This document shows positions 3,973 to 62,596 of a stretch of DNA of 64,000 nt, one piece after another; positions within the stretch are counted from its first letter, which is position 1, and each line of letters opens with the position of its first letter. The position numbers were made by a program, and so were the translations under genes. Location of the stretch: positions 34,522 to 98,521 of the forward strand of contig CAWHGC010000017.1 in the NCBI GenBank assembly GCA_963828885.1, read 5' to 3'. The notes below the pieces were generated by a model. That model saw only the letters and a program-made list of their open reading frames with translations. It did no database searches and was not told the origin of the DNA. Source of the stretch: an uncultured Actinomycetes bacterium. GTDB taxonomy: Bacteria > Actinomycetota > UBA4738 > HRBIN12.

Positions 3973-4543
3973 GCGGGCTCGGGGACCGGCGGGCGCGCCC
4001 GTTCCGGGCGCGGCGCTCGCTCCGGCCGGTGACCGAACGTGAGCCCCCGCACGAGCACCAGGAAGAACACGACCGCGCCCGTCACCAAGTAGGTCGCCCA
4101 CATCCACGGCCTCGTGGCGTCGCTGCCGGCGAAGATGCCGTGCAGCATCGACAGCGTGAACGTCGGGACGGCCAGCATGTGCAGCCGCCGCCACCACGGA
4201 TGCCGATCCGTCGCTTCGTCCACGAGGACGTCATCACGACGACCATCGCGTACATCGCGACCACGCCGATGCCGGTCGCGACCGGCCGGTACTCGGCACG
4301 GAGCGGCACCAGCAGGTCCGGCAGCCCGAACGGCATGAAGCTGTCGATCAGCAGACCGCCGAGGTGCACGCCCAGGAGCGCGAGTCCGACGGTGGCCACG
4401 AACTGGTGGAAGAGGATCGAGGTCGGCTTCGCCACGTGTTTCGTGACGAGCGAGGTGGTGGACACCAGCCCCCAGGCCACCGAGAGGAACAGCATCAGAT
4501 AGGCGCCGACGCCGGCCGCGCGCAGCACGATCCACGTGTTCAT
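3954..4543 (-). CDS. Ferric-reductase-like transmembrane protein (FRD/MsrQ-like), split by one frame change
   Basis: The N-terminal part MNTWIVLRAAGVGAYLMLFLS...HQFVATVGLALLGVH lies in ORF 4082..5425. The C-terminal TM part HMLAVPTFTLSMLHGIFAG...YLVTGAVVFFLVLV lies in ORF 3954..4535. The ATG at 4543 has a GGAGG Shine-Dalgarno sequence and overlaps the apbE stop (ATGA). Confidence 0.6.
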
Positions 4544-5425
4544 GCGGATGCCTCCGCGGCTCGGAGGTTCGTGCGAACGTCGCCGTCGGCGCGCACGAGG
4601 ACGACCGGGCCGGATCGCAGCGCGTCCTCGCCGGTGAGCAGCGCTCGCTTCGCGGCGATCTCGGCGAGCGCGCACGTCGGCGCCCACACGGTCGCCTGCA
4701 CGATGCCGGTGTCCGAGGGCGAGCCCGTCCTCGGGTCGATCAGGTGGTGGCGTCCGTCGCCCCACGCTCGCCGGGTCGTGCTCGAGGTCGCGATCGCACC
4801 GGCAGCCATCGACAGGCGCGCGAGACTCGTGTCGGGATCGTCGGGGTCCTCGACCTCGACGTCCACCGCTGGGGCGTCGCCGGCAAGGCGGAGGTCGCCG
4901 CCGGCGTTCACGAGCGCCCACGGCAGTCCCGCGGCGACGGCCGCGCCGGCCGCGAGGTCCACCGTCCACCCCTTCGCGACGCCGCCGAGGTCCAGGCCGA
5001 CGCCGGGCGGCAGACGCAGCTCGCGGCCCTCGAGGGAGACCTCGCGCCAGCGGCCGCAGGCGACCGGCGGCCGGAGCGCGCCACGCGCGCCGGCGATCAG
5101 CTCGTCGAAGTCCCGGTCGTAGCCGGCGGCCGTGACGGCCGCGAGCACCGTCGGGTCGAACAGGCCGCCGCTGTCGGCCGCGCGCTCGAGGGCGAACGCG
5201 AGCGAGCTCGGCGAACGGCGCCGACACCGTCGTCGACGAACCCGCCGACGCGTTCACCCACGAGAGCTCGCTGTCGGCGCGGAACCGCGAGTACCGGCGC
5301 TCCTCCCGCTCGAAGATCGTCTCCACTTCGCGGATCGCGAGGGACACGGCGACCGCGGGCGCCCGGTCGTCGTCGACGACGAGCGTCACGGAGGTGCCCA
5401 TCGCGCGGAAGGCGTGCCGCAGCAT
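4540..5425 (-). CDS. apbE: FAD:protein FMN transferase ApbE, split by one or two frame changes
   Basis: The N-terminus MLRHAFRAMGTSVTLVV is the ApbE signature start. The C-terminal 200 aa, with LDLGGVAKGWTVD and HHLIDPRTG, lie in ORF 4540..5148. The middle section is read in the wrong frame. Confidence 0.7.
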
Positions 5426-5751
5426 CAGGAGCCGCCCGTCGAGGTCGTGACGGGTGGCGCGGAGGTCGAGCCCCCGCCGCCCGCCGAGGTCGAAGACGAC
5501 GACCCCTGCGAGATCGTGATGGGCGCGGCGGGGGCGTCCGTGATGATCACGCGCCGCACGATCTTCTTCACGATCACCACAGGCCGTTGTCTCGGCCGGC
5601 GCGGTGACGTCTCGATCGAGGATGCCACCTTGGGCGCCGCACCGAAGATGCCGAGGCCGGTCAGGAACGTCGCGCCCCCGGCCACCCAGGCCACCGCACG
5701 GACGCGCCCCTTCGAGAGGCGCGTCCGCTTGCGGGGAGCGGTGTCAGTCAT
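5425..5751 (-). CDS. Small single-TM membrane protein with a Ser/Thr/Gly-rich tail
   Basis: MTDTAPRKRTRLSKGRVRAVAWVAGGATFLTGLGIFGAAPKV... Its start overlaps the stop of the upstream gene and its stop overlaps the apbE start. Confidence 0.4.
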   Translation of the reverse strand: MTDTAPRKRTRLSKGRVRAVAWVAGGATFLTGLGIFGAAPKVASSIETSPRRPRQRPVVIVKKIVRRVIITDAPAAPITISQGSSSSTSAGGGGSTSAPPVTTSTGGS

Positions 5752-8584: not shown

Positions 8585-10068
8585 ATGCCGAGTGCGCCGA
8601 ACGAGCCCACCACGTCCGCGCCGAAGGGCCACGGCCGCACCGTCCGGATCTTCCTCGCCATCACCGCGAGCCTGTCGTTGCTCGTGGGTGTCGCCGGCGG
8701 GATCAGCTATCGCGAGCTATAAGGCGGTGGAGGGCGAGGGCGTGAACGACGGAGTTCTACGATCCGGACCCCAGCGCCTCGCCCGGCGCGGATCGACCGA
8801 CCGGACCCTGCGTGAACAACGTCTGCAACTATCTGATCCTCGGCAGTGACTCTCGCCAGGGACTCACGCAAGAAGGAGCAGATCGAGTTCGGCACCAACG
8901 GCGACATCGGAGGCTCGAACCGCTCGGACACGATCATGCTCGTGCACACGCGATCCATCGCAGCAGAAGGCCGCGATCATCTCCTTCCCCCGTGACCTCT
9001 GGGTGAACATCCCGGGCGTCGGTGAGGACAAGATCAACGCCGCGTTCCAGGGAGGCGTCGACGGCGGCGGGCCGGAGCTGGTCGCGAAGACCGTGCACGA
9101 GATCACGGGACTGAGGATCAACCACTACGTCTACGTCGACCTCGCGGGGTTCCAGAACATCGTCGACACGCTCGGCGGCGTCCAGATGTGCATCCCGGCC
9201 GAGAACGTGAACACCCCCGGCTGGGTGCGATGGTCCCGACGGCCCGGTCTTCTACCACCAGCAGGGCTACATCGCCGACCCGTACACCGGGCTGCTCGTG
9301 AAGCCCGGCTGCCAGCTCCTCCACGGAGACCAGGCGCTGGCGTACGTCCGGACCCGGCACCTCAAGTGCGACGCGGTGCCCGACTTCGCCCGCATCAACC
9401 GGCAGCAGGAGTTCCTCCGCGCGGTCATCAACCGGTTGCTGCAGCCATCCGAGCTGATCAAGGCGCCCTCGCTCATCCGGCCGGTGCTCGGAAGCCTCAA
9501 GCGCGACGACAAGCTCACACCCGTCGATCTGGCGTTCCTCGTCAGCCAGCTCCAGGGGATGAGCACCGGCGCGGCGGAGTTCCGATCGGTCCCCGGCACC
9601 GTCGGGACCGAGCAGCCCTCGTGGTCGAGCATCCCGCTGTCGGTCGTGCACATGGATCCGTCGGCCGAGCAGATCTTCGCGGCGCTGCGCGACGGCAAGC
9701 CGCTGCCGAAGGCCGGGACGAGCCTCGAGGGCGTCGAGATGTCGGCGGCCAACATCACCGTGCCGGTCGTCGACCACGACTCCGCCGGCAAGGCGACGGG
9801 CGTCAACACCGTCCTCTCGGACGCCGGCTTCATCGCGCCGGGCATCACGGACTACGCGACCTACGGCGCCGACGTGAAGGGCTCGGTCATCGCGTACGAG
9901 CCCGGGCATGACGCGGAGGCGCAGGTCGTCGCGAAGTACTTCCCCGGCCTCAAGCTCGTGGAGACGCCGAAGGACGCGCTCCCCGGCACCGACGTGGCGG
10001 TCTTCGTGACGGCCGCCTACACCCCGCAGCAGCCCGGGAGCGGGCCCGGCACCACCACCTGCGCGTAG
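8585..10068 (+). CDS. LytR-CpsA-Psr (LCP) family cell-wall glycopolymer ligase, split by about 5 frame changes
   Basis: N-terminal TM segment MPSAPNEP...IFLAITASLSLLVGVAG. LCP core motifs NYLILGSDSRQ, SNRSDTIMLVH, ISFPRDLWVNIPGVGEDKINAAFQGG and LGGV are spread over three frames. The C-terminal LytR_C-like part is intact in ORF 9298..10068. Confidence 0.7.
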
Positions 10069-22988: not shown

Positions 22989-24704
22989 ATGCGAAGAGCC
23001 GCACTCCTCGTCGCCGTCTCCCTCGTCGCTTCCCTGGGCGTCCTCCCGGCCGCGCCGGCCGGTGCCGCCGGGTCGTTCACCTTCTACGGCTCCGGCTTCG
23101 GGCACGGTCTCGGGATGTCGCAATGGGGGGCCTACGGCCTCGCGAAGGACGGCTGGGCGCACAAGAAGATCCTCACCCACTTCTACTCGGGCACCGTCGT
23201 GAAGCAGGCCTCCTCGCCGCCCAAGAACCTCCGGATCGGGCTCACGCAGGGACAGTCGAAGGTGCATCTCACCGCCGAGGCAGGACCCGTCACGATCCGC
23301 GTCGAGGATCCGAAGACCGGCACGGAGGTCGGCACGATCCCGAAGGGGAAGACCTGGACCGTGCGCGAGGCCGGCGACGAAGTACCGCGTGCTGAACTCG
23401 GCGGGCAAGCGCGTCGGCGGCAAGGACTGGGGCGGCACGGCACGGGACCTGTTCGTCACGTACGCCGGCGCCCGGGTGCGCTCGGCCGCTGCCGGCGCCA
23501 CCTACAACCGTGGCTTCATCGAGTTCAACCTGTACTCGTGCGCCGGGAGCTGCGCGATGCGCATGATCCTGGTGGTCGCGCCCGAGGCCTACCTCCTCGG
23601 GCTCGGGGAGGTGCCGAGCAGCTGGCCGATGGCCGCGCTCCGCGCGCAGGCGGTGGCGGGCGCGGTCCTACGCCCTCAACAAGGTGGAGTCCGGGCAGCA
23701 CCGCGCCGGCTGCAACTGCGGCCTGTACGACTCGTCGCTGGACCAGGTCTACATCGGGTGGGCGAAGGAGGGCGGCTCCCAGGGCGACCGCTGGGTGCAC
23801 GCGGTGCACCAGACCGGCGGCCAGATCGTCGCGTTCTCCGGCGACGTGATCCCGGCCTTCTACACCTCCTCCGACGGCGGCCACACGGAGAACAACGAGA
23901 ACGTCTGGGGCGGAACGCCGCTGCCGTATCTCAGGGGCGTCTGCGATCCCGGCGACTACACCTCGGCGAACCCGAGCGCCGTGTGGAAGGTCTCGTACTC
24001 GGCGGGGTCGGTGACGAACCGCCTCGCCGGCTACACCGGCAACATCGGCACCGTGTCGGGGTTCACCGACTTCGACCGCGGCGTGTCCGGGCGCATCATC
24101 ACGGTCCGCGTGGAGGGGAAGAACGGCTCGGACGTGATCAGCGGCGCGCAGTTCCGCGCGGGCCTCGGGCTCAAGGACGACCGCGTGTGGGTGAATCGCG
24201 ACAAGAACGTGACGGGGCGGATCCGCGCGACCTACGACGCCGCCTCGTGCGCGCCCGGCCTGCCCACCTCGCCCGAGGTCGACGTGCCGGGCGGCAGCCG
24301 CCAGCTCTTCGAGACCGGCGCGATCTACCGAAACACGGGCGACGTGACCGTGTGGCTGAAGGGCGCCGTCTTCGACGAGTACACGGCGGTGGGCGGCGCC
24401 GGCGGCCGACTCGGCCTGCCCACGTCGAAGGTGGTGCACGGTCACGGGCGTCACCGGATGCGCGGCGGGGTGCAGCCGGACCTCGTTCGTGCGCGGACGG
24501 ATCTACTGGAAGTCGGGCGTCGGCGCCAACGCCCTGTGGGGCCGCGTGCTGGACACGTTCCTCGCCCACAACGGCGTCGACGGGTCGCTGGGGTTCCCGA
24601 CCTCGCGCGTGCAGGTGGCGGACGACGGCAGCGCGTCGGCCACCTTCGAGCACGGCTCGATCGAGTGCCCGCCGCCCGACGGCGGGGACTGCACGATCAG
24701 CTGA
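22989..24704 (+). CDS. SpoIID/LytB-domain protein with C-terminal LGFP repeats, split by about 3 frame changes
   Basis: A signal peptide is followed by SFTFYGSGFGHGLGMSQWGAYGLA (SpoIID). A large central part lies in ORFs 23389.. and 23684... LGFP repeats (GGRLGLPTSKVV, GSLGFPTSRVQ) are at the end. Confidence 0.65.
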
Positions 24705-25521
24705 CGCTCAGCACTCGCCCGAGGACGTCGGCTCCGGCGCGTTGCTCGGTGCATTCGAAGGCCGTCATGAAGCCCTTCGCGATCGTGGTGGCCTGACTCG
24801 CCGTCACGGTGCCCGGGCAGGTGAGCAGTTTGTTCCACGCCGTCACGGCGAAGCCGACGCCCGTCGGCAGCGACGTGTGCGGCGTGAGGATCACGTGGTG
24901 CTTCGTGTCGTTGTTCGCGACCGTCGTGAGCGCGCTCGATCACGTCCGGTGGCAGCGCGCCGTCGCCGTCCGGCCGGTAGTAGATGTTCACGAACGCGTG
25001 CTCGAGGTTGTGCACGAGCCGCGTCTCGGGCGGCATCTCGGTGTACACGGCCGGGGTGGTCGGCAGTCGGGGACGGATCGTGCGGTCCCGACGTCGCCGG
25101 CTCCTCCGGATACACGTGCGTCGCGCCGGAGGCCAGGTGCATGCCGTCGGGCGCGCTGCCGACCGGCGTCTCCACGCCGGTGCAGCCGGCCGCCTTCGCC
25201 GCGTCGGCCGCGGCCGCCGGGAACGGATTCGGCGCCGCCCACGCGGGTGAACCAGGTGAAGACGCCGATCGCCACCGCCGCCACCACCACCGACAGCACG
25301 AACCGCCGTGCGGTGTCGCGCCGCCGCTGTCTGCGCATCGCGGCCTCGCGCGCGGCGCGCGCCTGCTGCTTGCGCTCCTGCCGGTCGGCGCGCGGCCGGT
25401 TCTGCTGGTGCGGGCGCCCGGCCGCGGTGCCCTGGCCGTCACCGCTCGCGGATCTGCCCGGACCTTGGCTCGCTGCGCCGCTCGGGCGGTGCGGACGACG
25501 GCGCCGCTTCTTGTTCGCCAT
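24697..25521 (-). CDS. DUF3105 family membrane-anchored protein, paralog 2, split by about 3 frame changes
   Basis: MANKKRRRRPHRPSG... basic N-terminus plus a TM segment (FVLSVVVAAVAIGVF). DUF3105 core HNLEHAFVNIYYRP. The start overlaps the stop of paralog 1 (TGATG). Confidence 0.55.
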
Positions 25522-30075: not shown

Positions 30076-32560
30076 ATGCCCGAGGCGAACCTCCACCAGC
30101 TCCGCCGGGCGCTCGCCAGGGCCGATCAGGGCAAAGCGTTGTCCCTCGCCGAGGTCGAGGCGCTGATGGACGCGCGCGGCGACGAACTGGAGCGGCTGCT
30201 CGAGGTCGCCGGCCGCCTCCGCGACCTCGGGCACGGCGACGTCGTCACGTACTCGCGCAAGGTGTTCATCCCGCTCACGATGCTCTGCCGGGACCACTGC
30301 CACTACTGCACGTTCGCGAAGGCGCCCGCGCACCTGGAGCAGCCCTTCCTGTCGATCGAGGAGGCCGTCGCCGATCGCCGACGCCGGTCGCGCGATGGGA
30401 TGCAAGGAGGCGCTGTTCACCCTCGGGGACCGGCCCGAGGACCGCTACCCGGTCGCGCGTGAGTGGCTCTCGGCCCGCGGGTTCGCGTCGACGCTCGACT
30501 ACGTGCGCGCCGTCGCGATCCGCGTCATCGAGGAGACGGGCCTCCTGCCGCACCTGAACCCCGGCGTCATGTCGTACGAGGAGATGGCGCGACTGAAGCA
30601 GGCCTCGGCGTCGATGGGCATCATGCTGGAGACCTCGAGCGACCGGCTCGGCGGCCGCGGGATGCCCCACTTCAACTCACCGGACAAGGTGCCGGCGGTG
30701 CGGATGCGCACGATCGCCGACGCCGGCCGCCTCGCGATCCCGTTCACGACCGGCATCCTCGTCGGGATCGGGGAGACCTCGCGCGAGCGCGCCGAGTCGC
30801 TCATCGCGATCCGCGACGTCCATCGCCGCTACCGCCACGTGCAGGAGGTCATCGTGCAGAACTTCCGCGCGAAGCCGCGCACCGCCATGCACGACGCGCC
30901 CGAGCCCGACGCCGACACGTTCCTCGCCGCCGTCGCGGCCGCTCGGGTCGTGATGGGGCCCCGCATGCACGTCCAGGCGCCGCCCAACCTGTCCGACGAG
31001 GCCGAGCGCCTGCGCCTGCTGGACGCCGGCATCGACGACTGGGGCGGTGTCTCCCCGCTCACCCCCGACCACGTGAACCCGGAGAAGCCGTGGCCGGCCA
31101 TCGAGCATCTCGCCGCCACGACCGCCGCGCGAGGCCTGCGCCTGCGGGAGCGCCTCACGATCTACCCGGAGTTCGCCGCCCGCCCCGACCCGTACCTCGC
31201 CGCGAAGATGCGGGCGCCCGTCGAGGCCCTCATCGGCCCCGACGGCCTCGCGGTCGAGGGGCTGGTGCCCACGCCGATCGCCTGGCAGGACCCGGAGGTG
31301 CGGTGGAAGCCGCGCGAGATCGCGCTCACGTTCGCGAAGGCCGCCGGCGCCGGACTGCGCGAGGACGCCGAGCAGGTGTACGGGGACTTCGACGCCCTCG
31401 AGGTCACGCGCGAGTGGGCGGCCCGCGACGTGTCGCCCGAGCGCCTCGACGCCGACATCAGGGGCGCACTCACGAAGGCGGCCGCCCACCGCCCGATCAC
31501 CGACGGGGAGGCCCTGGCGCTGTTCGCCGCCGAGGGACCGGCGCTCGAGGCCCTCACCCGCGTCGCCGACGACCTGCGGGCCGAGGCCGTCGGCGACGAG
31601 ATCACCTACGTGCTCAACCGCAACATCAACTTCACGAACGTCTGCTACGTGGGCTGCCGCTTCTGCGCGTTCGCGCAGCGGGAGCAGGACCGCGAGTCCT
31701 ACACGCTCACGCTCACGGAGGTGGCCGACCGCGCCGAGGAGGCGTGGGAGCGCGGCGCCAGCGAGATCTGCATGCAGGGCGGTATCCACCCCGATCTGCC
31801 CGGTTCCTTCTATCTGGACCTCCTCGACGCCGTGAAGGCCCGCGTGCCGGATATCCACATCCACGCCTTCAGCCCCATGGAGATCCTCAACGGCGCGACG
31901 AAGCTCGGCGTCTCCTTCGCGGAGTTCCTGTCCGAGGCCCGCGCACACGGCCTCGGGTCGATCCCGGGCACGGCCGCCGAGATCCTCGACGACGAGGTCC
32001 GGTGGGTCCTGACGAAGGGGAAGCTCCCGGCGGACACCTGGGAGGAGATCGTCCGGACGGCGCACGGTCTGGGCATCCGGTCGAGCTCGACGATCATGTA
32101 CGGGCACGTCGACGCGCCGCCGCACTGGGTGGCGCACATCCGCCGGCTCGCGCACATCCAGGACGACACGGGCGGGTTCACCGAGTTCGTCCCGCTGTCG
32201 TTCGTCCACCAGAACGCGCCGATCTACCTCGCGGGCAAGGCGCGTCCCGGCGCGACCTTCGAGGAAGATCTGCGCATGCACGCGGTCGCGCGCATCCTGC
32301 TGGACGGAGTTATCCCCAACGTGCAGGTGTCGTGGGTCAAGCTCGGTGTGCATGCGTCGCAGGCGATCCTGCAGGGAGGCGCGAACGACTTCGGCGGCAC
32401 GTTGATGGAGGAGACGATCAGCCGGATGGCCGGCGCTGAGTGGGGGATCAGCATGGAGCCGTCGGCGTTCGACGACGCGATCCGCGCGATCGGTCGCACA
32501 CCCGCCGTCCGCACCACGACGTACGAACGCGCACCCGTTCGCGTCGTCGAGACGGCCTGA
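30076..32560 (+). CDS. fbiC: Bifunctional FO synthase (CofG+CofH fusion, FbiC), split by one frame change near 30390
   Basis: Radical-SAM CxxxCxxC motifs are present twice (LCRDHCHYCTFAK and VCYVGCRFCAFAQ). The N-terminal 105 aa lie in ORF 29320..30462 and the rest in ORF 30395..32560. Confidence 0.8.
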
Positions 32561-32572
32561 CACGCCGATCCG

Positions 32573-32598
32573 TCAAGCATCTTGACCGAATAGGTCAA
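32573..32598 (+). promoter_or_regulatory. Nested TTGAC dyads GTCAAG-cat-CTTGAC and TTGACC-gaata-GGTCAA in the fbiC-whiB intergenic region
   Basis: Two overlapping inverted repeats. Three further CCCCTTG(A/T)C copies follow at 32600-32716. Confidence 0.4.
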
Positions 32599-32734
32599 TC
32601 CCCTTGACGACACGATTTCTGCCCGAATCCCCTTGCACATGGCCGTTCGGCTCGACACCATGGTCGTGATGGTGCACCACGGGGCAGGGAAAACATCGCG
32701 GTTCCCCCTTGTCAACGGGGCTGTTCTTCGTTCA

Positions 32735-32754
32735 GAATCACACGCGTGTGATTC
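32735..32754 (+). promoter_or_regulatory. 20-bp perfect palindrome GAATCACACGCGTGTGATTC, 5 nt upstream of the whiB SD
   Basis: Read directly from the sequence. A candidate operator overlapping the whiB core promoter/5'UTR. Confidence 0.5.
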
Positions 32755-32769
32755 AGGGGGGAGATCGAC

Positions 32770-32997
32770 GTGCACCACTACATCCCTTGGCAAGAGCGGG
32801 CGCGATGTCGCGAATACGACCCTGAGACGTTCTTCCCCGAGAAGGGAGGTTCATCGAGGGAGGCAAAGCGGATCTGCTCCGAGTGCCCCGTTCGGATCGA
32901 GTGCCTCAACTACGCGCTCCGCCGCGATGAGCGGTACGGGGTGTGGGGAGGCATGAGCGAACGGGAACGTCGACGCCTCAAGCGGATGGCGTCCTAG
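32770..32997 (+). CDS. whiB: WhiB-family transcriptional regulator (Fe-S, WhiB2/WhmD-like by context)
   Basis: Four Cys in the WhiB arrangement (ARCREYDPETFF...ICSECPVRIECLNYAL) and a GVWGG turn with a basic tail. GTG start with AGGGGGGAGA Shine-Dalgarno sequence. Confidence 0.9.
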   Translation: MHHYIPWQERARCREYDPETFFPEKGGSSREAKRICSECPVRIECLNYALRRDERYGVWGGMSERERRRLKRMAS

Positions 32998-33020
32998 ATC
33001 GGATCGAAGGGAGGGGAAGC

Positions 33021-33429
33021 ATGGCAGCTGCCAGGAAGACGGCAAGCGAAGAAGACCGCGGCGCGCAAGCGTCCGGCAGCCAAGAGGAGCACGGCCGCGA
33101 AGAAGACCGCAGCAACTCGGAAGCGCACCGCCGCCAAGCGGTCCACGGCCGGGAAGAAGGCGGCCGCGACCCGCAAGCGGAAGACCGTGAAGCGGTCCAC
33201 GGCCGGGAAGAAGGCGGCCGCGACCCGTAAGCGGAAGACGGCGGCGCGCAAGCGCCCGGCCGCCAAGAAGGCGACGGCTCGCAAGAAGACGGCCGCTCGT
33301 CGCAAGCCGGCACGCAAGAAGACGGCCGCGCGCAAGCGCCCGGCCGCCAAGAAGGCGACGGCACGCAAGAAGACCGCGGCGCGCAAGCGTCCGGCCGCTC
33401 GCAAGAAGAGCACGGCGAAGCGTCGCTGA
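33021..33429 (+). CDS. Lys/Ala-rich histone-H1/HU-tail-like basic repeat protein, with a frame discrepancy just after the start
   Basis: ATG 33021 has a strong SD (GGAGGG). From 33043 the +1 frame, which has GC3 near 90%, encodes AKKTAARKRPAAKRSTAAKK...(PAAKKATARKKTAAR)n...STAKRR, ending with TGA at 33427-33429. The frame-0 acidic peptide has poor GC3. Confidence 0.6.
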
Positions 33430-33535
33430 CCCTCGCCGTTTCCGATCGTGAAGGGGGGCGTCATGCCCCCCTTCCGTCGTTCTTCAGGAGGTGCGTGCTA
33501 GTCTCCGCGCCGCGCGGCTGACCCGTGCATCCCTC

Positions 33536-36500
33536 ATGGCTCAAGCCACCCCGACCGACCCCGCTCTCCGCACGCCGACCGTGCTCGCCGTGCTCGTGAC
33601 GCACGACGCCGCGGGCTGGATCCGCGAGTGCCTGCACGCCCTCGCCGCACAGACCTATCCACGGCTGGGTGTCCTGGCCGTCGACAACGCCTCCACCGAC
33701 GAGACGCGCCAGATCCTCGAGGCCTCGCTCGGATCGGGCCGGGTCCTCGCCCTCGACGAGAACCTCGGCGTCGCCGGCGCCGTGCAGGCGGCCCTCGCGT
33801 CGGTGCCGGCCGCCGCCGCCGCCGACTACCTCCTCATCACCCACGACGACACCGCGATGGACCCCGACTGCGTCACGCGGCTCGTCGAGGCGGCGATCGG
33901 CATCGAGGGCCTCGAGGACGTCGGCGTCGTCGGCCCCAAGGTCGTCGACTGGCACGAGCCCCGGCTCCTGCGCGAGGTCGGCCGTTCCACCGACCGCTTC
34001 GGGCATCCGTACACGCCGCTGCAGGACGGCGAGATCGACCAGGGCCAGTTCGATCGCGTCCTCGAGGTCATGTACGTGTCGTCGTGCGCGATGCTCGTCT
34101 CGCGCGAGTGCCTGCAGCGGACCGGCGTACCCGACGAGCGATTCACCTCCCACCACGAGGACCTCGACTTCTGCTGGCGCGCGCGGCTCGCCGGGTTCCG
34201 CGTGCTGATGACGCCGCTCGGACGCGCGCGCCACATGGCGGCGTCCTCGCGCGGCGAGCGTCCCGACGACCCGACCCCTCGGTCGGGGCGGTACTACGGC
34301 GAGCGCGCGGCGCTCGCGTCCATGTTGAAGAACTACGGACTGCTCTCGCTCCTCACGCTGCTGCCGCTGTACGCGCTGCTCGGCCTCGCGCGCCTCCTCG
34401 GGTTGGCGCTCGCGCGGCGGTTCGACGATGCGTGGGACCTGCTCACCGCGTGGGGGTGGAACGTGGCGCATCTGCCGGGCACGGTCCGGCGCCGCGTCCG
34501 CACGCAGTCCGTCCGGCGGGTGAAGGACCGGTCGATCCGCCGCTTCATGGAGTCCTCGGCGTTCCGGTTGCCGAAGTGGCTCGAGGCGGCCGGCGAGATC
34601 CTCGCCGAACAGCGCGGCATCGACGACGACGACGAGGGCGAGGTACCGCGTCCCAAGCTGAGCCGGCAGACCGTGTCGCTGGCCCGTGCCCACCCGGCCG
34701 CCGTCGCGTCGGTCCTCGCGATCGTCGTGTGCGGCATCGCGTTCCGCGACATGTTCGGCCCCGGCGCGATCCGCGGCGCCGTCGTCGCCGCGTTCCCGTC
34801 CGGCCCGTCGGCGTTGTTCGGCGAGTTCGCCTCGGGGTTCCGCACGACCGGACTCGGGGGCGCCGGCGCGGGCAGCCCCGCTCTGGCCGCGCTGGGCGGG
34901 CTCAGCACGCTGCTGCTCGGCAGCACCGAGCTCGCCCAGAAGGTGCTCCTGGGTGGGCTGCCGGTCGTGGCCGGCGTCACCATGTATCGGTCGTTGACGC
35001 GCCAGACGGGCGACGGCCTGGCCGCCGCGGTGGCGGCGGCCAGCTACGCCCTGTCGGGGATCGTGATGTGGGCCTTCTCCGACGGGCGGGTCGACGTCCT
35101 CGTGGCGCTCGCCGCGCTGCCGGCCCTCGCGGACCGGCTCGAGTCCGCCTTCGACGCGGAGGCGCCCGCGCAGCGCCGCCGGTTCGTCGTCGGCCTCGGG
35201 GTGGCGCTCGCCGTCGGCGTCTCCTTCTTCCCGGGGATCGCGCCGGCGTTCCTCGTCCTGGTCGCGGTCCGGGTCCTGGCGGCGCCGGCTCGCATGCGCG
35301 GCATCGGGCTCACGGCCGGCGGCGTCGTCGTCGGCGCGCTGCTCGTCCTGCCGTTCCTGCCCTCCCTCGCCGCCGCCGACGCCGCCGCCCTGGGCTCCAG
35401 CGTCGGCACCCTCGACGTCCACCGCATCGGCCGCCTCGGTCTCGGGCCGGGCCCGGGCACGGGTCCGATCGCCTGGTTCCTGCCGATCGCGGCGGTGTTC
35501 GCACTCAGCCTGGCGTCCGGCGAGGTGCGCGGCCGCGCGTTGCGGGCCACGCTGACGGCGGTGGCCGGCCTCGCGCTCGCGTGGCTGTCGGCGGCCGGGT
35601 ACCTGCCGGAGGCGCTGTCGAACCAGGTGGCGTACGTCTCGCTCGTCGCCGCCTCCGAGGCCCTGCTCGTCGGGTACGGCGTGGCGTCGCTCGCCGGCGG
35701 CGTCGGCAGCGAGTCGTTCGGATGGCGGCAGATCGGTGCGGCGGGACTCATCGCCGTCCTCGCGGCGGGGCTGTCCCTCCAGGCGATCCTCGCGATGGTC
35801 GGCGGATGGTCGTGGGGCGGCTCCGAGGCGATCCCGCCGGCGTGGGCGGTCATCGCCGATCGCACGGAGGGCGAGTTCCGCGTCCTGTGGATCGGCGACG
35901 ACGTCGGGATGGCGTTCCCGCCCCCGGGCGGGGACGCGCAGGGGATCGTCGACGCCGGGGCGGACTCGGTCCGCTTCAACGTCACGGACCGCAACGGCAT
36001 CACGATCCTCGACACCGGCCGCTCGTTGACGGGGCCGGGCACCGGCTACCTCCGAGCGGTCCTCCAGCGGATGCTCGCCGGCGGCACGCGACACGCGGGC
36101 GCTCTGCTCGGGCCGCTCGGCGTCCGGTACGTGGTCGCGCGCGAGGGCGACCTCCCGGCCGGCGCCCGGGCAGTGCTCGGCACGCAGCTCGACCTGGACC
36201 CGATCCCGAGCGAGGGCCTCGTCATCTACCGCAACGCGCACGCGCTGCCCCCCGCCGCGGTCTCCACGGACCCGGTCACGGCGCAGATCGCCGCGAGCTC
36301 CTCGCTCGACCAGATCCAGCGCCTCGCCGACCCCGGCGCCACCGCGGCCGCGCGCGTGCCGGGGGGGTGGGACGCCTCGGGTCCCGACGGCGCATCGGTG
36401 CTGATCGGCTCCGAGCGCGTGAGCGGGTTCCGCGCCCACGACGCGAGCGGATCGTCGGTGCCGGTCGCAACCTCGTTCGGGTGGGCGACCCGCACCGAGA

Positions 36501-39997: not shown

Positions 39998-40027
39998 CGC
40001 CGAGCCGGTTCAGTACCATGCGGTGAC

Positions 40028-41382
40028 GTGTCACCGGACCTGGACCGCATCTTCAAGGCGTACGACGTCCGTGGCGTCGTGCCCGACGAGCTCGATGTCG
40101 ACACCGCCCGCCGGATCGGCGGCGCCTTCGCGTCGTGGACCGGCGCCCCGCGGATCCTGATCGGACGGGACTGCCGGCTCTCGTCGCCCGACCTCGCGGC
40201 CGCGCTCGCCGAGGGCGCGACCGCCGTCGGCGCGGACGTGACCGACATCGGTCTGGCCTCCACCGATCTGCTGTACTTCGCGTCCGGTTCGCTCGACCTC
40301 CCCGGCATCATGCTGACGGCCAGCCACAACCCGCCGAACTACAACGGCATGAAGTTCTGCCTCGCCGGCGCGAGGCCCGTCGGGCAGGACACGGGGCTCG
40401 CCGACCTCCGCGAGCTGGCGGCCGGCCCCGAGCCGGCTCGTGCCGACGACGGTCGGCTCGGTCGAGCACCGGGACCTCCTCGACGACTACGTCGAGCACG
40501 TGCTGACGTTCGTCGACGTGGACGCGATGCGTCCGCTCACCGTCGTCATCGACACCGCGAACGGCATGGGCGGGCTCGTGGCGCCCGCCGTCCTCGCCCG
40601 CCTGCCCGTGAAGCTGCACCACCTGTTCCCCGAGCTCGACGGCACGTTCCCGAACCACCCTGCCGATCCGATCGACCCCGAGAACCAGCGCGATCTGAAG
40701 GCGGCCGTCCTCGAGTTCGACGCCGACATCGGCCTCGCGTTCGACGGCGACGCCGACCGGGTCTTCCTGGTCGACGAGCGCGCCGAGGGCGTCTCCGGGT
40801 CGATCGTGACGGCGCTGGTCGCGAAGGCGCTGCTGAAGCGCAACCCGGGCGCGCCGGTCGTCTACAACCTGATCTGCTCGTGGACGGTGCCGGAGGTGAT
40901 CCGCGAGGAGGGCGGGCAGCCGGTCCGGACCCGCGTCGGCCACTCGTTCATCAAGCAGGTCATGGCGGAGACCGGCGCCGTGTTCGGCGGCGAGCACTCG
41001 GGCCACTACTACTTCCGCGACAACTACTTCGCCGACTCGGGACTGATCGCGGCCGTCGTCGCGCTCGGCGAGCTGTCGTCGGCCGGCGTGCCGCTGTCCG
41101 AGCTGCTGGCCCCGTTCCGGCGGTACGCGGACTCGGGCGAGATCAACTCCGTCGTCGAGGACCCGGCGGGCCGGATCGAGGCGATCGCCGCTCGATACGC
41201 GGACGGCACGACAGGACCGCACGGACGGGCTGACGGTAGAGTTCCCGGACTGGTGGGCCAACGTGCGGGCGTCGAACACCGAGCCACTGCTCCGGCTGAA
41301 CGTGGAGGCCCGGACGCAGGAGCTGTTGGACGAGCGGACCGCCGAGTTGCTCACACTGATCCGCGGCGAAGGAGGCACCTGA
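40028..41382 (+). CDS. pmm: Phosphomannomutase/phosphoglucomutase, split by two frame changes near 40440 and 41215
   Basis: KAYDVRGVVPDELD..., active-site TASHNPPNYNGMKF, then GGEHSGHYYFRDNYFADSG, then the C-terminus ...WWANVRASNTEPLLRLNVEA in a third frame. Confidence 0.75.
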
Positions 41383-41557
41383 TGACGATCGACGCCGAGC
41401 TGCTGGAGATCCTGGTGTGCCCGAACGACCGGGGGGAGGTGGAGTACCTCGAGGCCGAGCAGGTCATCGTGTGCTCCACGTGCGGCTACCGCTATCCGGT
41501 GCGCGACGGTATCCCCGTCATGCTGATCGACGAGGCAGAGAAGCCGGGCGCGGCGAA

Positions 41558-45433: not shown

Positions 45434-46171
45434 GTGTGGTCGGAGGCCCTCGAGGTCGTCTTCCCCCGTTCGTGCGCCGGGTGCGGCACCGGCCCGTGGC
45501 CGTTCTGCGGGGCGTGCACGGCCTCGCTGGTGGCGCTGGAGCCGCCCTGGTGCGAGCGGTGCGGCCGCCCCTCCGATCGCCCGGTGGCGTCCTGCCGCGA
45601 CTGCCCGCCGGGATCCATCGACGTCGCGCGCGCAGCGTTCCTGTTCCACGGTCCGGCGCGCCGCGCGATCCACCGGCTGAAGTTCTCGGGCTGGCGGTCC
45701 GTGGCCGATGCGCTGGCGGCCGCCGTCGTCGCCACCGGTCCGCCGTCCGCCGACGTCGTCACGTGGGTGCCGCTCGCGCGGTCGCGGCTGGCCTCGCGCG
45801 GGTACGACCAGGCGAAGGTGCTGGCGCGGGCGCTCGCCGCCCGGACGGGCACGCCGGCGATCGCGCTGCTCGCGCGGGCCGCCGACACAGGACCGCAGGC
45901 GCGTCGCTCAGGCGCCGAGCGGCGGCTCGCCCTCGAGGGCGCCTTCCGGGCGTCGGGTCGGCCCGTGCCGGCGAGCGTGCTGCTCGTCGACGACGTCCTC
46001 ACGACGGGCGCCACCGCCGGCGTCTGCGCCCGCATCCTGCGTGAGGCCGGTGCCCGCCGGGTGTCGCTCGCCACCGCGGCACGCGCGTTCTCGGGCCCGC
46101 TGCCCCCTCGCTATACTCGCCCGCAGGGCCCTCGCCTGGGTCTGTGGTTGCCCGAGGACGTCCCTCGGTAG
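45434..46171 (+). CDS. ComF-family phosphoribosyltransferase (double zinc ribbon plus PRTase domain)
   Basis: CAGCG...CGACT...CERCG...CRDC zinc ribbons, and the PRTase motif VLLVDDVLTTGATAG. Same position as Rv3242c upstream of hpf. Confidence 0.75.
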   Translation: MWSEALEVVFPRSCAGCGTGPWPFCGACTASLVALEPPWCERCGRPSDRPVASCRDCPPGSIDVARAAFLFHGPARRAIHRLKFSGWRSVADALAAAVVATGPPSADVVTWVPLARSRLASRGYDQAKVLARALAARTGTPAIALLARAADTGPQARRSGAERRLALEGAFRASGRPVPASVLLVDDVLTTGATAGVCARILREAGARRVSLATAARAFSGPLPPRYTRPQGPRLGLWLPEDVPR

Positions 46172-46421
46172 TCGACGCCAGTCGCAGGCGAAACGACCCA
46201 CGTAAGGCGGCAGTTGGCCGCTGAGCATGGTGCGGTTTAGAGGTAAGTCCTGCCTCGGGCCTCCGGGTCCGGGAGAGGGCGGGAGTCGTCCCCCTCGGGG
46301 ATCGCGGCGAACGCCCCCGCAGGCGGGTGTGGGGTCAAAGACCAGGTCAGCCAGGCGAGGGCCCACCTTCGGCGAGGGGACCGATCAGGGAGCGACCGAC
46401 ACGACGGCGAGGAGCCCGCAC

Positions 46422-49216: not shown

Positions 49217-49333
49217 GGCGGCGGCCAGGACCCGGCAGAACCCGGGCAGAACCGGAGCAGCCGATAGAATCGAAGGCTGAGGAGAGATCCGACCCGCCGG
49301 CACGCGGCCGGCCGATCCACGAGAGGAACCCCG

Positions 49334-52040
<2,707 letters not shown>

Positions 52041-52045
52041 GGCCC

Positions 52046-52858
52046 GTCGCACTGTCGCCGTCCGACGTCGTCGCTGCGCTCCGGGCCGCCGGATGCGTGT
52101 TCGCCGAGGACGAGGCGCGGCTGCTGATGGCGGCGGCCGGGTCGCCGGCCGAGCTGGCCGCGATGGTCGACCGGCGGGTCGGCGGGCTTCCTCTCGAGCA
52201 CGTCCTCGGGTGGGCGGAGTTCTGCGGCGTGCGGATCGAGCTGGAGCCCGGAGTGTTCGTGCCGCGTCGCCGCTCGGAGTTCCTCGTCGCGGAGGCCGCG
52301 GCGATCGGGCCGGAGCGACGCGGTCGTCGTCGACCTGTGCTGCGGCTCCGGCGCGGTGGGTGCTGGCGCTGGCTGCGGCGCTGAACGGCGTCGAGCTCTA
52401 CGCCGTCGACGTCGACCCCGTGGCGGTGCGATGCGCGCGCCGCAACCTTCCGGGTGGTCGTGTGTTCGAGGGCGACCTGTACGAGCCGCTGCCGGCGTCG
52501 CTGCGGGGCCGTGTCGACGTGCTGGTCGCCAACGCGCCCTACGTGCCCACCGAGGCGGTCGGGCTGCTGCCTCCGGAGGCGCGCACGTACGAGCCGCGGG
52601 TGGCCCTCGACGGCGGCGCGGACGGGCTCGAGGTCGTGCGCCGGGTGGCGGCCGGCGCGGCGAGCTGGCTGACGCCGGGCGGTCACCTGCTGGTGGAGAC
52701 GAGCGCGGATCAGGCGCCGGCGGCAGCTGAGGCCTTCGTTCGTCGGCGGGCTCGTACCGCGGGTGGCGCGCTCGGAGGAGTTGGACGCCACCGTCGTCAT
52801 CGGGTCGAGGCCCGCCGAGCGGATCGGACCGTCGGGTCGGGTAGGCTTCCCGTCGTGA
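52046..52858 (+). CDS. PrmC/HemK-like protein N5-glutamine methyltransferase, split by about 3 frame changes; start uncertain
   Basis: DLCCGSGAVG (SAM motif I), LVANAPYVPTE (the NPPY-type motif) and LTPGGHLLVE. The C-terminus ...SEELDATVVIGSRPAERIGPSGRVGFPS ends at a TGA overlapping the prfB ATG. Confidence 0.55.
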
Positions 52859-53971
52859 TGAGCGACTTCACGGATCGGATCAAGGAGCTGGCGACGCGCA
52901 TCTCGGCCTCGAAGGAGTTCCTTTGACGTCGAGGGCAAGCGCGCGCAGCTGGGCGACCTCGAGCGGCAGGCCTCCGATCCGAACCTGTGGGACGACCCCG
53001 CCCGGGGCCAGCAGGTCACCAGCAAGCTCGCTCGGCTGAACCAGGACATCGACCGCTACGAGGCGTTCGAGCGCCGCGTCGGCGACGTGCAGGCGCTCGA
53101 CGAGATGCTGGCCGAGGAGTCCGACGCCGACCTCTCGAAGGAGCTGGCGAGCAGCGTGAAGTCCCTCGAGGCCGACGTCGAGAAGCTCGAGCTCGCGGCC
53201 CTGCTGTCGGGCGAGCACGATGCCGCCGACGCCGTCCTCACCGTCAACGCCGGTGCCGGCGGCACGGAGAGTCAGGACTGGGCCGAGATGCTGCTGCGCA
53301 TGTACCTGCGCTGGGCGGAGCGGGAGGGCATGAGCGCCGAGATCGACGAGGTCCATCCGGGCGAGGAGGCCGGCATCAAGTCGGCCACGATGACGGTGAA
53401 GGGCACGAACGCGTACGGGCTGCTGAGCGCCGAGCGCGGCGTCCACCGCCTCGTGCGCATCAGCCCGTTCGACTCGCAGAAGCGACGGCACACGTCGTTC
53501 GCCTCCCTCGACGTGATCCCGCTCCTGGAGGAGGCCGACGAGGAGGACTTCGAGATCCCGCCCGACGAGCTGCGGATCGACGTGTACCGATCCAGCGGTC
53601 CGGGCGGGCAGTCCGTCAACACGACCGACTCCGCCGTTCGGATCACGCACCTGCCGACCGGCCTCGTGGCCGCGTGCCAGAACGAGCGCAGCCAGCTGCA
53701 GAACAAGGCCGTCGCGATGCGGATCCTGAAGGCGCGGCTGGCCGAGCTCGAACGCCACAAGCGCGAGGACGAGATGGCCGCGATCCGGGGCGAGCGCAAG
53801 TCCGTCGACTTCGGCTCGCAGATCCGCTCGTACGTGCTGGCGCCGTATCAGATGGTGAAGGATCACCGCACCGACCACGAGGTCGGCGACCCCGCCCGGG
53901 TGCTGGACGGCGACATCGACGGCTTCATCGAGGCGGAGCTGCGGCGGCGCGCCTCCGCGCACGCCCAGTAA
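52858..53971 (+). CDS. prfB: Peptide chain release factor 2, with a programmed +1 ribosomal frameshift at 52921-52927
   Basis: Frame 0 gives [22 protein letters not shown] and then an in-frame TGA. The +1 frame continues [15 protein letters not shown]... through the SPF and GGQ motifs ([21 protein letters not shown]). The CTT TGA C slippery site is preceded by the SD-like GAAGGAG. Confidence 0.88.
52911..52927 (+). other. RF2 autoregulatory recoding site: SD-like GAAGGAG - TTC - CTT TGA C
   Basis: Canonical prfB frameshift cassette, read directly from the sequence. Confidence 0.85.
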
Positions 53972-62245: not shown

Positions 62246-62596
62246 GGGGGTGTACTGGCTTCGACTTGGACGTTCACCGTCCGGGGGAAGCGGGCCGTGA
62301 TCCCGGATGTCACGTTAAACGCCGGATCAATACAAGCGCCGATAACTACGCGCTCGCTGCCTAATTAGTTAGGTAGCCGTCCCCTCCGGGGCGCCTGCGC
62401 CTGGAGGATGGACGTCGTCAGCAGGCTCACGGACGTGGTTCCGCTCGGGGGCCGCGACCGGACATCGAACCCGAGCTGGCCGAGAGGTGCTCCGCCGGTG
62501 GGAGCCTCGAGGCGAGACTTCACCCACCTGGCTGCGCCCGGAGAAGACCCGGTCGGTCGCCCGAGCACGGGGGTTCGAATCCCCCCACCTCCACCA
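62246..62596 (+). ncRNA. ssrA: Transfer-messenger RNA (tmRNA, ssrA)
   Basis: 5' GGGGGUGUACUGGCUUCGAC pairs with 3' ...CACCUCCACCA to form a 7-bp acceptor stem. T-arm GGGGGUUCGAAUCCCCCC. Internal tag ORF ...AAUACAAGC GCC GAU AAC UAC GCG CUC GCU GCC UAA (ADNYALAA, with an actinobacterial-type YALAA ending). Lies downstream of smpB as in Mtb. Confidence 0.88.

Follow-up and report, generated by a model that had tools for sequence, protein, structure and literature searches.

A surplus C near the start of a whiB-linked basic repeat gene, probably an assembly error, in an uncultured soil actinobacterium

Which reading frame follows whiB in the window, i.e. in the whole stretch of 64,000 nucleotides analysed here, and why do its start signal and its coding pattern disagree? 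A Shine-Dalgarno site and an ATG at 33021 open one frame (frame 0), and the lysine- and alanine-rich repeats that come after them lie in another (+1). The features of the locus are as follows.

32770..32997, plus strand: whiB, 75 aa, regulator of the developmental WhiB (WhiB2) type (Pfam Whib, 98.9 bits)
33010..33016, plus strand: Shine-Dalgarno site GGAGGGG, read from the sequence, its last base 4 nt short of the ATG
33021..33429, plus strand: gene for a basic Lys/Ala/Arg/Thr-repeat protein (135 aa once one C is removed), called from its orthologues
33021..33230, plus strand: acidic 69-aa ORF of frame 0, a frameshift artefact, present only through an insertion
33056..33239, plus strand: repeat array A, period 54 nt (18 aa, about KRSTAGKKAAATRKRKTA), about 3.3 copies (Tandem Repeats Finder scores 202-203)
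33244..33422, plus strand: repeat array B, periods of 84, 51, 33 and 18 nt, units of the ARKRPAAKKATARKKTA type (Tandem Repeats Finder scores 75-224)
33450..33474, plus strand: GC-rich hairpin with an 11 bp stem, likely a terminator (terminator scan)
32994..33464, minus strand: antisense ORF of 156 aa, a compositional shadow, its wobble position common with that of the true frame

The ATG at 33021 lies 23 nt past the end of whiB, in a spacer that otherwise holds only the Shine-Dalgarno site. Read from this ATG, frame 0 gives MAAARKTASEEDRG..., an acidic peptide of 69 aa whose stop ends at 33230; on the start signal, its frame and the acidic product, the preliminary description of this DNA was right. 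The +1 frame, which encodes the K/A/R/T repeats, is open from 32998 to 33429 (stop TGA at 33427-33429), with no ATG, GTG or TTG upstream of the GTG at 33187. Its GC3 of 0.876 (33043-33429) is coding-like, as had been noted, although it is not the only frame with this property, since the antisense ORF has an equal GC3. At the protein level, the two arrays together hold roughly seven to nine irregular units of 13 to 25 aa, and not the nine to ten copies of a single 15-aa unit that had been counted initially. The first eight residues of frame 0 (MAAARKTA) already resemble the repeat protein, which suggested that the frame is broken around codon 9.

As for the neighbouring regulator, the best PDB match of WhiB is 8dy9_H, 'Transcriptional regulator WhiB' (112.8 bits), followed by WhiB1 (69.7 bits); other paralogues are lower, with WhiB3, WhiB4 and WhiB7 all below the score of WhiB1. 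On these matches, the regulator is of the developmental WhiB/WhiB2 type rather than WhiB1, WhiB3, WhiB4 or WhiB7. The hairpin at 33450-33474 begins 20 nt past the stop of the repeat gene, and the fold of 33425-33495 reaches -33.3 kcal/mol (z = -3.4); it is likely the terminator of the unit formed by whiB and the repeat gene. Given the 23-nt gap after whiB and this hairpin downstream, the two genes are probably transcribed together as a two-gene unit.

The true frame was sought in orthologues. An exact look-up of WhiB in an assembly index found the identical protein in 121 blocks, and ten contigs (L001-L010), from metagenomes and metagenome-assembled genomes (MAGs), were compared. In all ten, whiB is followed by an ORF in the basic frame, beginning at the homologous ATG and reading MAAARKTARKKTAARKRPAAKRS...KKSTAKRR, with a length of 41 to 135 aa, some copies ending at the contig edge. 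The ATG is found 23-24 nt past the whiB stop in nine of the ten, the other one (L006) having a 40-nt spacer and a different Shine-Dalgarno site. This site is kept as GAAGGGAGGGGAAGCATG in nine of the ten, as well as in L016 and in four further contigs (L091-L094, see below); among those nine it is identical letter for letter in eight, and L009 has one G more.

A scan of species-representative genomes with WhiB provided 80 loci; a WhiB with 100% identity was not found in the genome contigs scanned in this way. Over L001-L090, an intact basic repeat ORF (MAAARKTARKKTAARKRPAAK...KKSTAKRR) of 43 to 154 aa is present in 53 loci, where it starts 19 to 80 nt past whiB and always in frame with the repeats, with N-termini including MAAAK, MSPAK and MAMAK. 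The basic repeat gene directly past whiB, reported earlier for the window, is thus found at 53 orthologous loci. Almost all the loci carrying it come from MAGs of soil, sediment or groundwater that bear no label beyond 'Actinomycetota' or 'Actinomycetes bacterium'. Where WhiB is only 67-76% identical, no such repeat gene was found within whiB plus 2.5 kb; loci without it include Streptosporangiaceae, Nocardioidaceae, Brevibacterium and Gordonia. On this distribution, the whiB-repeat gene pair is kept across one uncultured soil Actinomycetota clade. Among the closest relatives, the protein has 114 (L003), 130 (L091), 134 (L092) and 135 aa (L094), a range which suggests that the number of repeats changes quickly.

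Most of the six frames of the 53 orthologous genes are stop-free by composition alone, so that neither an open frame nor a high GC3 counts as evidence and the comparison of orthologues has to decide. The preliminary description had advised checking the start codons of orthologues, and had held that a conserved acidic frame-0 protein would speak against the repeat gene. Intact orthologues use the same ATG, in frame with the repeats, and in every orthologue examined this ATG runs into the basic frame, the acidic peptide being conserved in none. The frame-0 ORF has no Pfam hit, and its 69-aa product has no record in the assembly index; nor do the 80-aa product read from GTG 33187 and that of the 721-aa fbiC ORF. 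From these orthologues, the Lys/Ala/Arg frame entered from ATG 33021 is the true product, and the 69-aa ORF, which exists because of a C insertion, is a frameshift artefact and no gene.

The insertion itself was located by comparison with close relatives.

33047..33047, plus strand: extra C in Arg codon 9, AGG appearing as AG[C]G (alignment to L094)

When metagenomes were scanned with the opening 25 nt of the repeat gene, four JGI contigs (L091-L094) were returned, and the gene is intact in all four contigs having those 25 nt. One of them, L094, a short-read soil contig from a JGI metagenome, matches the window over 32243-33579 at 98.1% identity. In a base-by-base alignment, the window differs from L094 by 23 substitutions and by two single-C insertions, at 33047 and 33522, the former being the sole indel within the repeat gene. 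L091 reads ACGGCAAG-GAAGAAG (in longer form, ACGGCAAG-GAAGAAGACC), which is the window sequence minus C 33047. Removal of this C yields a protein of 135 aa, the length of the L094 protein and nearly identical to it, and the base is absent from all the close relatives compared. Judged from these alignments, the start/frame conflict comes down to a single extra base, the C at 33047 within Arg codon 9. Of the two explanations offered beforehand, a 1-nt indel or an unusual initiation, L094 bears out the first, and the 53 orthologues in frame speak against the second; the indel is indeed close to the start, although at nucleotide 27 of the gene and not within its first 20 nt or within 33021-33045, as had been proposed.

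The second extra C relative to L094, at 33522, falls in a CCC run 5' of ATG 33536, the start of a 1029-aa family-2 glycosyltransferase (GT2); it would change any N-terminal extension of this enzyme from GTG 33491.

Whether C 33047 stands alone was assessed by two screens over the whole window, namely a start-less-leader screen and a codon-usage Viterbi segmentation for frame changes without a start codon, which replaced a crude sliding-window GC-phase frame plot that was too noisy. The junctions were then tested with Pfam and counted only if split domains confirmed them. Besides 33047, homology verifies at least eight frameshifts in the 64 kb (about one per 7 kb): secA and manB have two apiece, and fbiC, lytR, apbE and an LGFP-repeat gene have a single one each. 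Almost all of them fit a 1-nt insertion. The genes concerned are listed below, together with one natural case.

4085-5743, minus strand: apbE, profile positions 1-58 and 58-250 in two frames, break at ~5203
8850-10065, plus strand: lytR_cpsA_psr, profile positions 11-93 and 98-148 in two frames, break at ~9236
23567-24793, plus strand: LGFP-repeat protein, consecutive repeats in two frames, break at ~24437
30076-32560, plus strand: fbiC (FO synthase, fused CofG/CofH), break at ~30352-30364
39998-41379, plus strand: manB (PGM_PMM; phosphomannomutase/phosphoglucomutase), three frames holding domain I, domains II and III, and domain IV
49268-52037, plus strand: secA, three frames with at least two shifts, at ~51410-51530 and ~51893
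52858-53971, plus strand: prfB (release factor 2), natural programmed +1 frameshift, CTT TGA C at 52921

In secA, which is normally an essential gene, one frame (49268-51607) holds the DEAD, PP_bind and P-loop matches and positions 1-75 of SW; positions 106-200 of SW are found in a second (51493-51957), and the SEC-C motif is found in a third (51318-52037). The two shifts of manB are situated at ~40435 and ~41210; past this gene, a small separate Trm112p-like ORF was observed at ~41391-41510. In fbiC, the radical-SAM N-terminus (...LCRDHCHYCTFA...SIEEAVA, with the stretch ...CRDHCHYCTFA...SIEEAVA) is in one frame and IADAGRAMGCKEALFTLGD... in the next, the break site reads GTCGCCGATCGCC, and the gene is contiguous across the junction in more than 30 orthologues. 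The prfB gene, with ATG 52858 and an AAGGAG stimulator followed by CTT TGA C, was recovered by the screen and served as a positive control. A junction in Wzt was dropped because Wzt_C is under its cut-off, and several further Viterbi frame switches, lacking Pfam support, were left uncounted. Two RNA genes or motifs were also observed on the plus strand of the window: a raiA RNA motif at 46131-46359 (Rfam RF03072, 151 bits vs. a gathering score of 101.3) and a full-length tmRNA gene at 62246-62596 (Rfam RF00023, 123.6 bits).

As an external control, frame changes were counted in fbiC and GT2, which flank the gene pair at the related loci. In the 17 loci from 'MFD'-labelled MAGs, 13 frame changes were found in 64.5 kb of these flanking genes (at L012, L017, L022, L024, L039, L044 and L060), 12 of them being +1, vs. 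a single one in 142.5 kb for all the non-MFD loci. The frameshifts of the window match the MFD MAG loci in both density and insertion bias. For the long-read samples of Microflora Danica, assembly from Nanopore data only, with one round of Medaka polishing, has been described (PMC12313526). The MFD MAG set looks like one with a systematic, insertion-type consensus error.

The repeat gene itself is frameshifted in six other loci (L016, L022, L024, L026, L044 and L045), five of which are Nanopore MFD MAGs, the remaining one being L045. At the MFD loci, it is frameshifted in 5 out of 17 cases, i.e. about 0.7 per kb vs. 0.2 per kb in the flanks, and no frameshift in this gene was found in the 14 metagenome-derived contigs (L001-L010 and L091-L094). 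L016 (CAWHTI010000007.1, 2728-2800), a Nanopore MAG of a different species with 82.5% nucleotide identity to the window, carries a surplus C in its codon 9 as well (GCG A[C]GG AAG), its close relative L004 being intact; in L024, one nucleotide is missing at codon 5. These cases and the MFD excess are explained by a context-dependent error in the purine run AGGAAGAAGAC. Because the same 64 kb holds at least eight more frameshifts in housekeeping genes, secA included, C 33047 most probably arose as a consensus error in an assembly of the long-read type, a reading to which we give a probability of roughly 0.85. On the screens of the window, the indel is one of many frameshifts in the assembly, which the preliminary description had not foreseen.

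A real mutation of the strain, by which the gene would have become a pseudogene only recently, or could at best still yield 80 C-terminal residues from GTG 33187, appears improbable. Such repeat genes are mutable, as the 114-135 aa of the closest relatives illustrate, and the frame downstream of the C is still open; yet this openness has no weight when most frames are open by composition. Moreover, L094, as close as it is, and all the other close relatives are intact, and the window has its other frameshifts, the two of secA among them, at a rate which alone predicts an event such as C 33047.

Still less credit is given to codon 9 as a mutational hot spot, where phase variation would switch the protein on and off. 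In its favour, an extra C occurs in the same AGG/CGG codon in the assemblies of two species (the window and L016), the deletion of L024 is only four codons upstream, and at the MFD loci frameshifts are about 3.7 times as frequent in the repeat gene as in the flanks. Phase variation is driven by homopolymer or simple-repeat tracts, and the site, GCAAGGAAGAAG, contains neither. The origin of the other frameshifted copies, five in six from MFD MAGs as against none in the 14 metagenome-derived contigs, also argues against it, and the same facts follow from a consensus error that depends on the purine-rich, low-complexity context. Were the C real and codon 9 a recurrent indel site, a WhiB-coupled, histone-tail-like nucleoid protein would be turned on and off within populations of this soil clade.

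A reading of the Lys/Ala frame as the mirror image of a real gene on the minus strand (33464..32994, 156 aa, ATG) has a negligible probability. The antisense ORF is complete and intact, it starts with an ATG, its high-GC wobble position is common to both strands, its GC1 > GC2 pattern looks the more typical, and the codon-usage Viterbi segmentation called 33048-33467 on the minus strand. However, as the sense strand contains almost no T, antisense frames are stop-free by composition in 43-50 of the 53 orthologues, with any start codon in just 28-43. The ATG of the antisense ORF falls within the terminator hairpin, in its loop, and L016 does not share it; the 156-aa product has no record in the assembly index. 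Concerning substitutions between close pairs, counts by codon position 1/2/3 of the sense frame are 499/325/1197, and the synonymous/non-synonymous counts are 1229/792 for the sense frame vs. 1076/945 for the antisense one, a test that favours the sense strand only weakly, as the pairs are not independent and the repeats align imperfectly. The sense call therefore rests on the conserved Shine-Dalgarno site, the ATG at a set distance, the N- and C-termini and the co-orientation with the neighbouring genes, all of which point to the plus strand.

Equally negligible is a frameshift that is decoded, either by a programmed +1 shift after codon 8/9 or by a non-canonical start (CTG 33028 or ATC 32998): an AGGAAG 3 nt 5' of the GCA codon does loosely recall the Shine-Dalgarno-like stimulator of prfB, but such a device should be conserved and the 53 orthologues and L094 are in frame, with no conserved unusual start or programmed frameshift among the orthologues, the site ACG GCA AGC GAA has no slippery, stop or rare codon and allows no +1 re-pairing, and an alternative start is unneeded, as the orthologue N-termini (MAAARKTARKK) correspond to frame 0 joined to frame +1 minus one base. 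In the raw sequence, prfB and the repeat gene do look alike, each with a short ATG ORF followed by the real frame at +1. The release factor gene, however, possesses CTT TGA C and an upstream AAGGAG, both of which are lacking in the repeat gene, whose orthologues are in frame.

With a consensus error at 33047 as the preferred reading, the frame conflict at 33021 would be no biological feature, only one of many single-base frameshifts in this assembly, and gene calls across the window (secA, manB, fbiC, lytR and apbE) need frameshift-aware handling.

The repaired protein of 135 aa consists of 31% A, 26% K, 20% R and 13% T, with a computed pI of 12, neither acidic nor aromatic residues, and repeats from residue 2 on. 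Its only Pfam hit is HC2 (PF07382), with 21.9 bits (E = 2.1e-4) vs. a gathering score of 40, and NCBIfam NF038053 (hist_H1_lk_Burk) gives 17.3 bits vs. a cut-off of 80, so that membership is reached in neither family. No Pfam match was obtained in the repaired protein for the HU/IHF fold (Bac_DNA_binding) or for the winged-helix globular domain of H1 (Linker_histone). It does share with the HU/HupB family a Lys/Ala-rich, degenerate repeat tail, which is a likeness of composition only. The description of the product as histone-like or HU-tail-like is therefore apt for its composition and does not extend to an HU fold, an H1 globular domain or an above-threshold score.

A PDB sequence search of the repeat protein gave no match at E ≤ 1, and a large protein search gave seven weak matches only, called 'hypothetical protein' wherever they were named; low-complexity correction is the reason for their small number. 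A whiB paired with an H1-like or lysine-rich neighbour is not described in the titles and abstracts of the papers listed by a literature search (15 of 80). By composition and orthology, the gene is a new member, unannotated, stand-alone and fast-evolving, of the bacterial histone-H1-tail-like basic repeat proteins, and makes a modest addition to their catalogue.

From its composition and from bacterial proteins resembling H1 tails, the product may be pictured as a disordered polycation, co-expressed with WhiB, which would bind polyanions non-specifically through its Lys and Arg residues. By analogy, its ligand may be DNA, a call with even odds, the main functional alternative being polyphosphate or RNA, as for AlgP. 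If DNA, the protein would assist in nucleoid compaction or organisation at times of WhiB expression, much as the Lys/Ala-rich tails of HupB and HupS do. Should it be a nucleoid protein produced together with WhiB, it would connect cell-division control with the compaction of the chromosome in this clade.

Among known systems, the Pseudomonas AlgP (KPAA repeats) and the Streptomyces DdbA (an H1-like and a DksA-like domain) have H1-like Lys/Ala repeats as the window protein does, and act, according to PMC9239181 and PMC3643593, on the nucleoid or on polyphosphate granules. Going by their descriptions, they are set apart by extra domains, by other repeat units and by the absence of a link to whiB. 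The Burkholderia-type H1-like proteins (NF038053) are, like the window protein, small, stand-alone, basic and Ala/Lys-rich, although the latter is not a member of that family. The chlamydial Hc2 is also a stand-alone Lys/Ala/Arg repeat protein with a variable number of repeats; it belongs to another phylum, and with a sub-threshold score the resemblance is compositional, homology not being demonstrable. Finally, the tails of HupB/MDP1 and HupS are, like the window protein, actinobacterial, basic, low-complexity and Ala/Lys-rich sequences with degenerate repeats, and PMC5676037 and PMC11229371 link the Lys/Ala tails of HU proteins to nucleoid compaction tied to development or dormancy. Compared with HupB and HupS, the window protein does without the HU/IHF fold, stands alone, is richer in Arg and Thr, and adjoins whiB.
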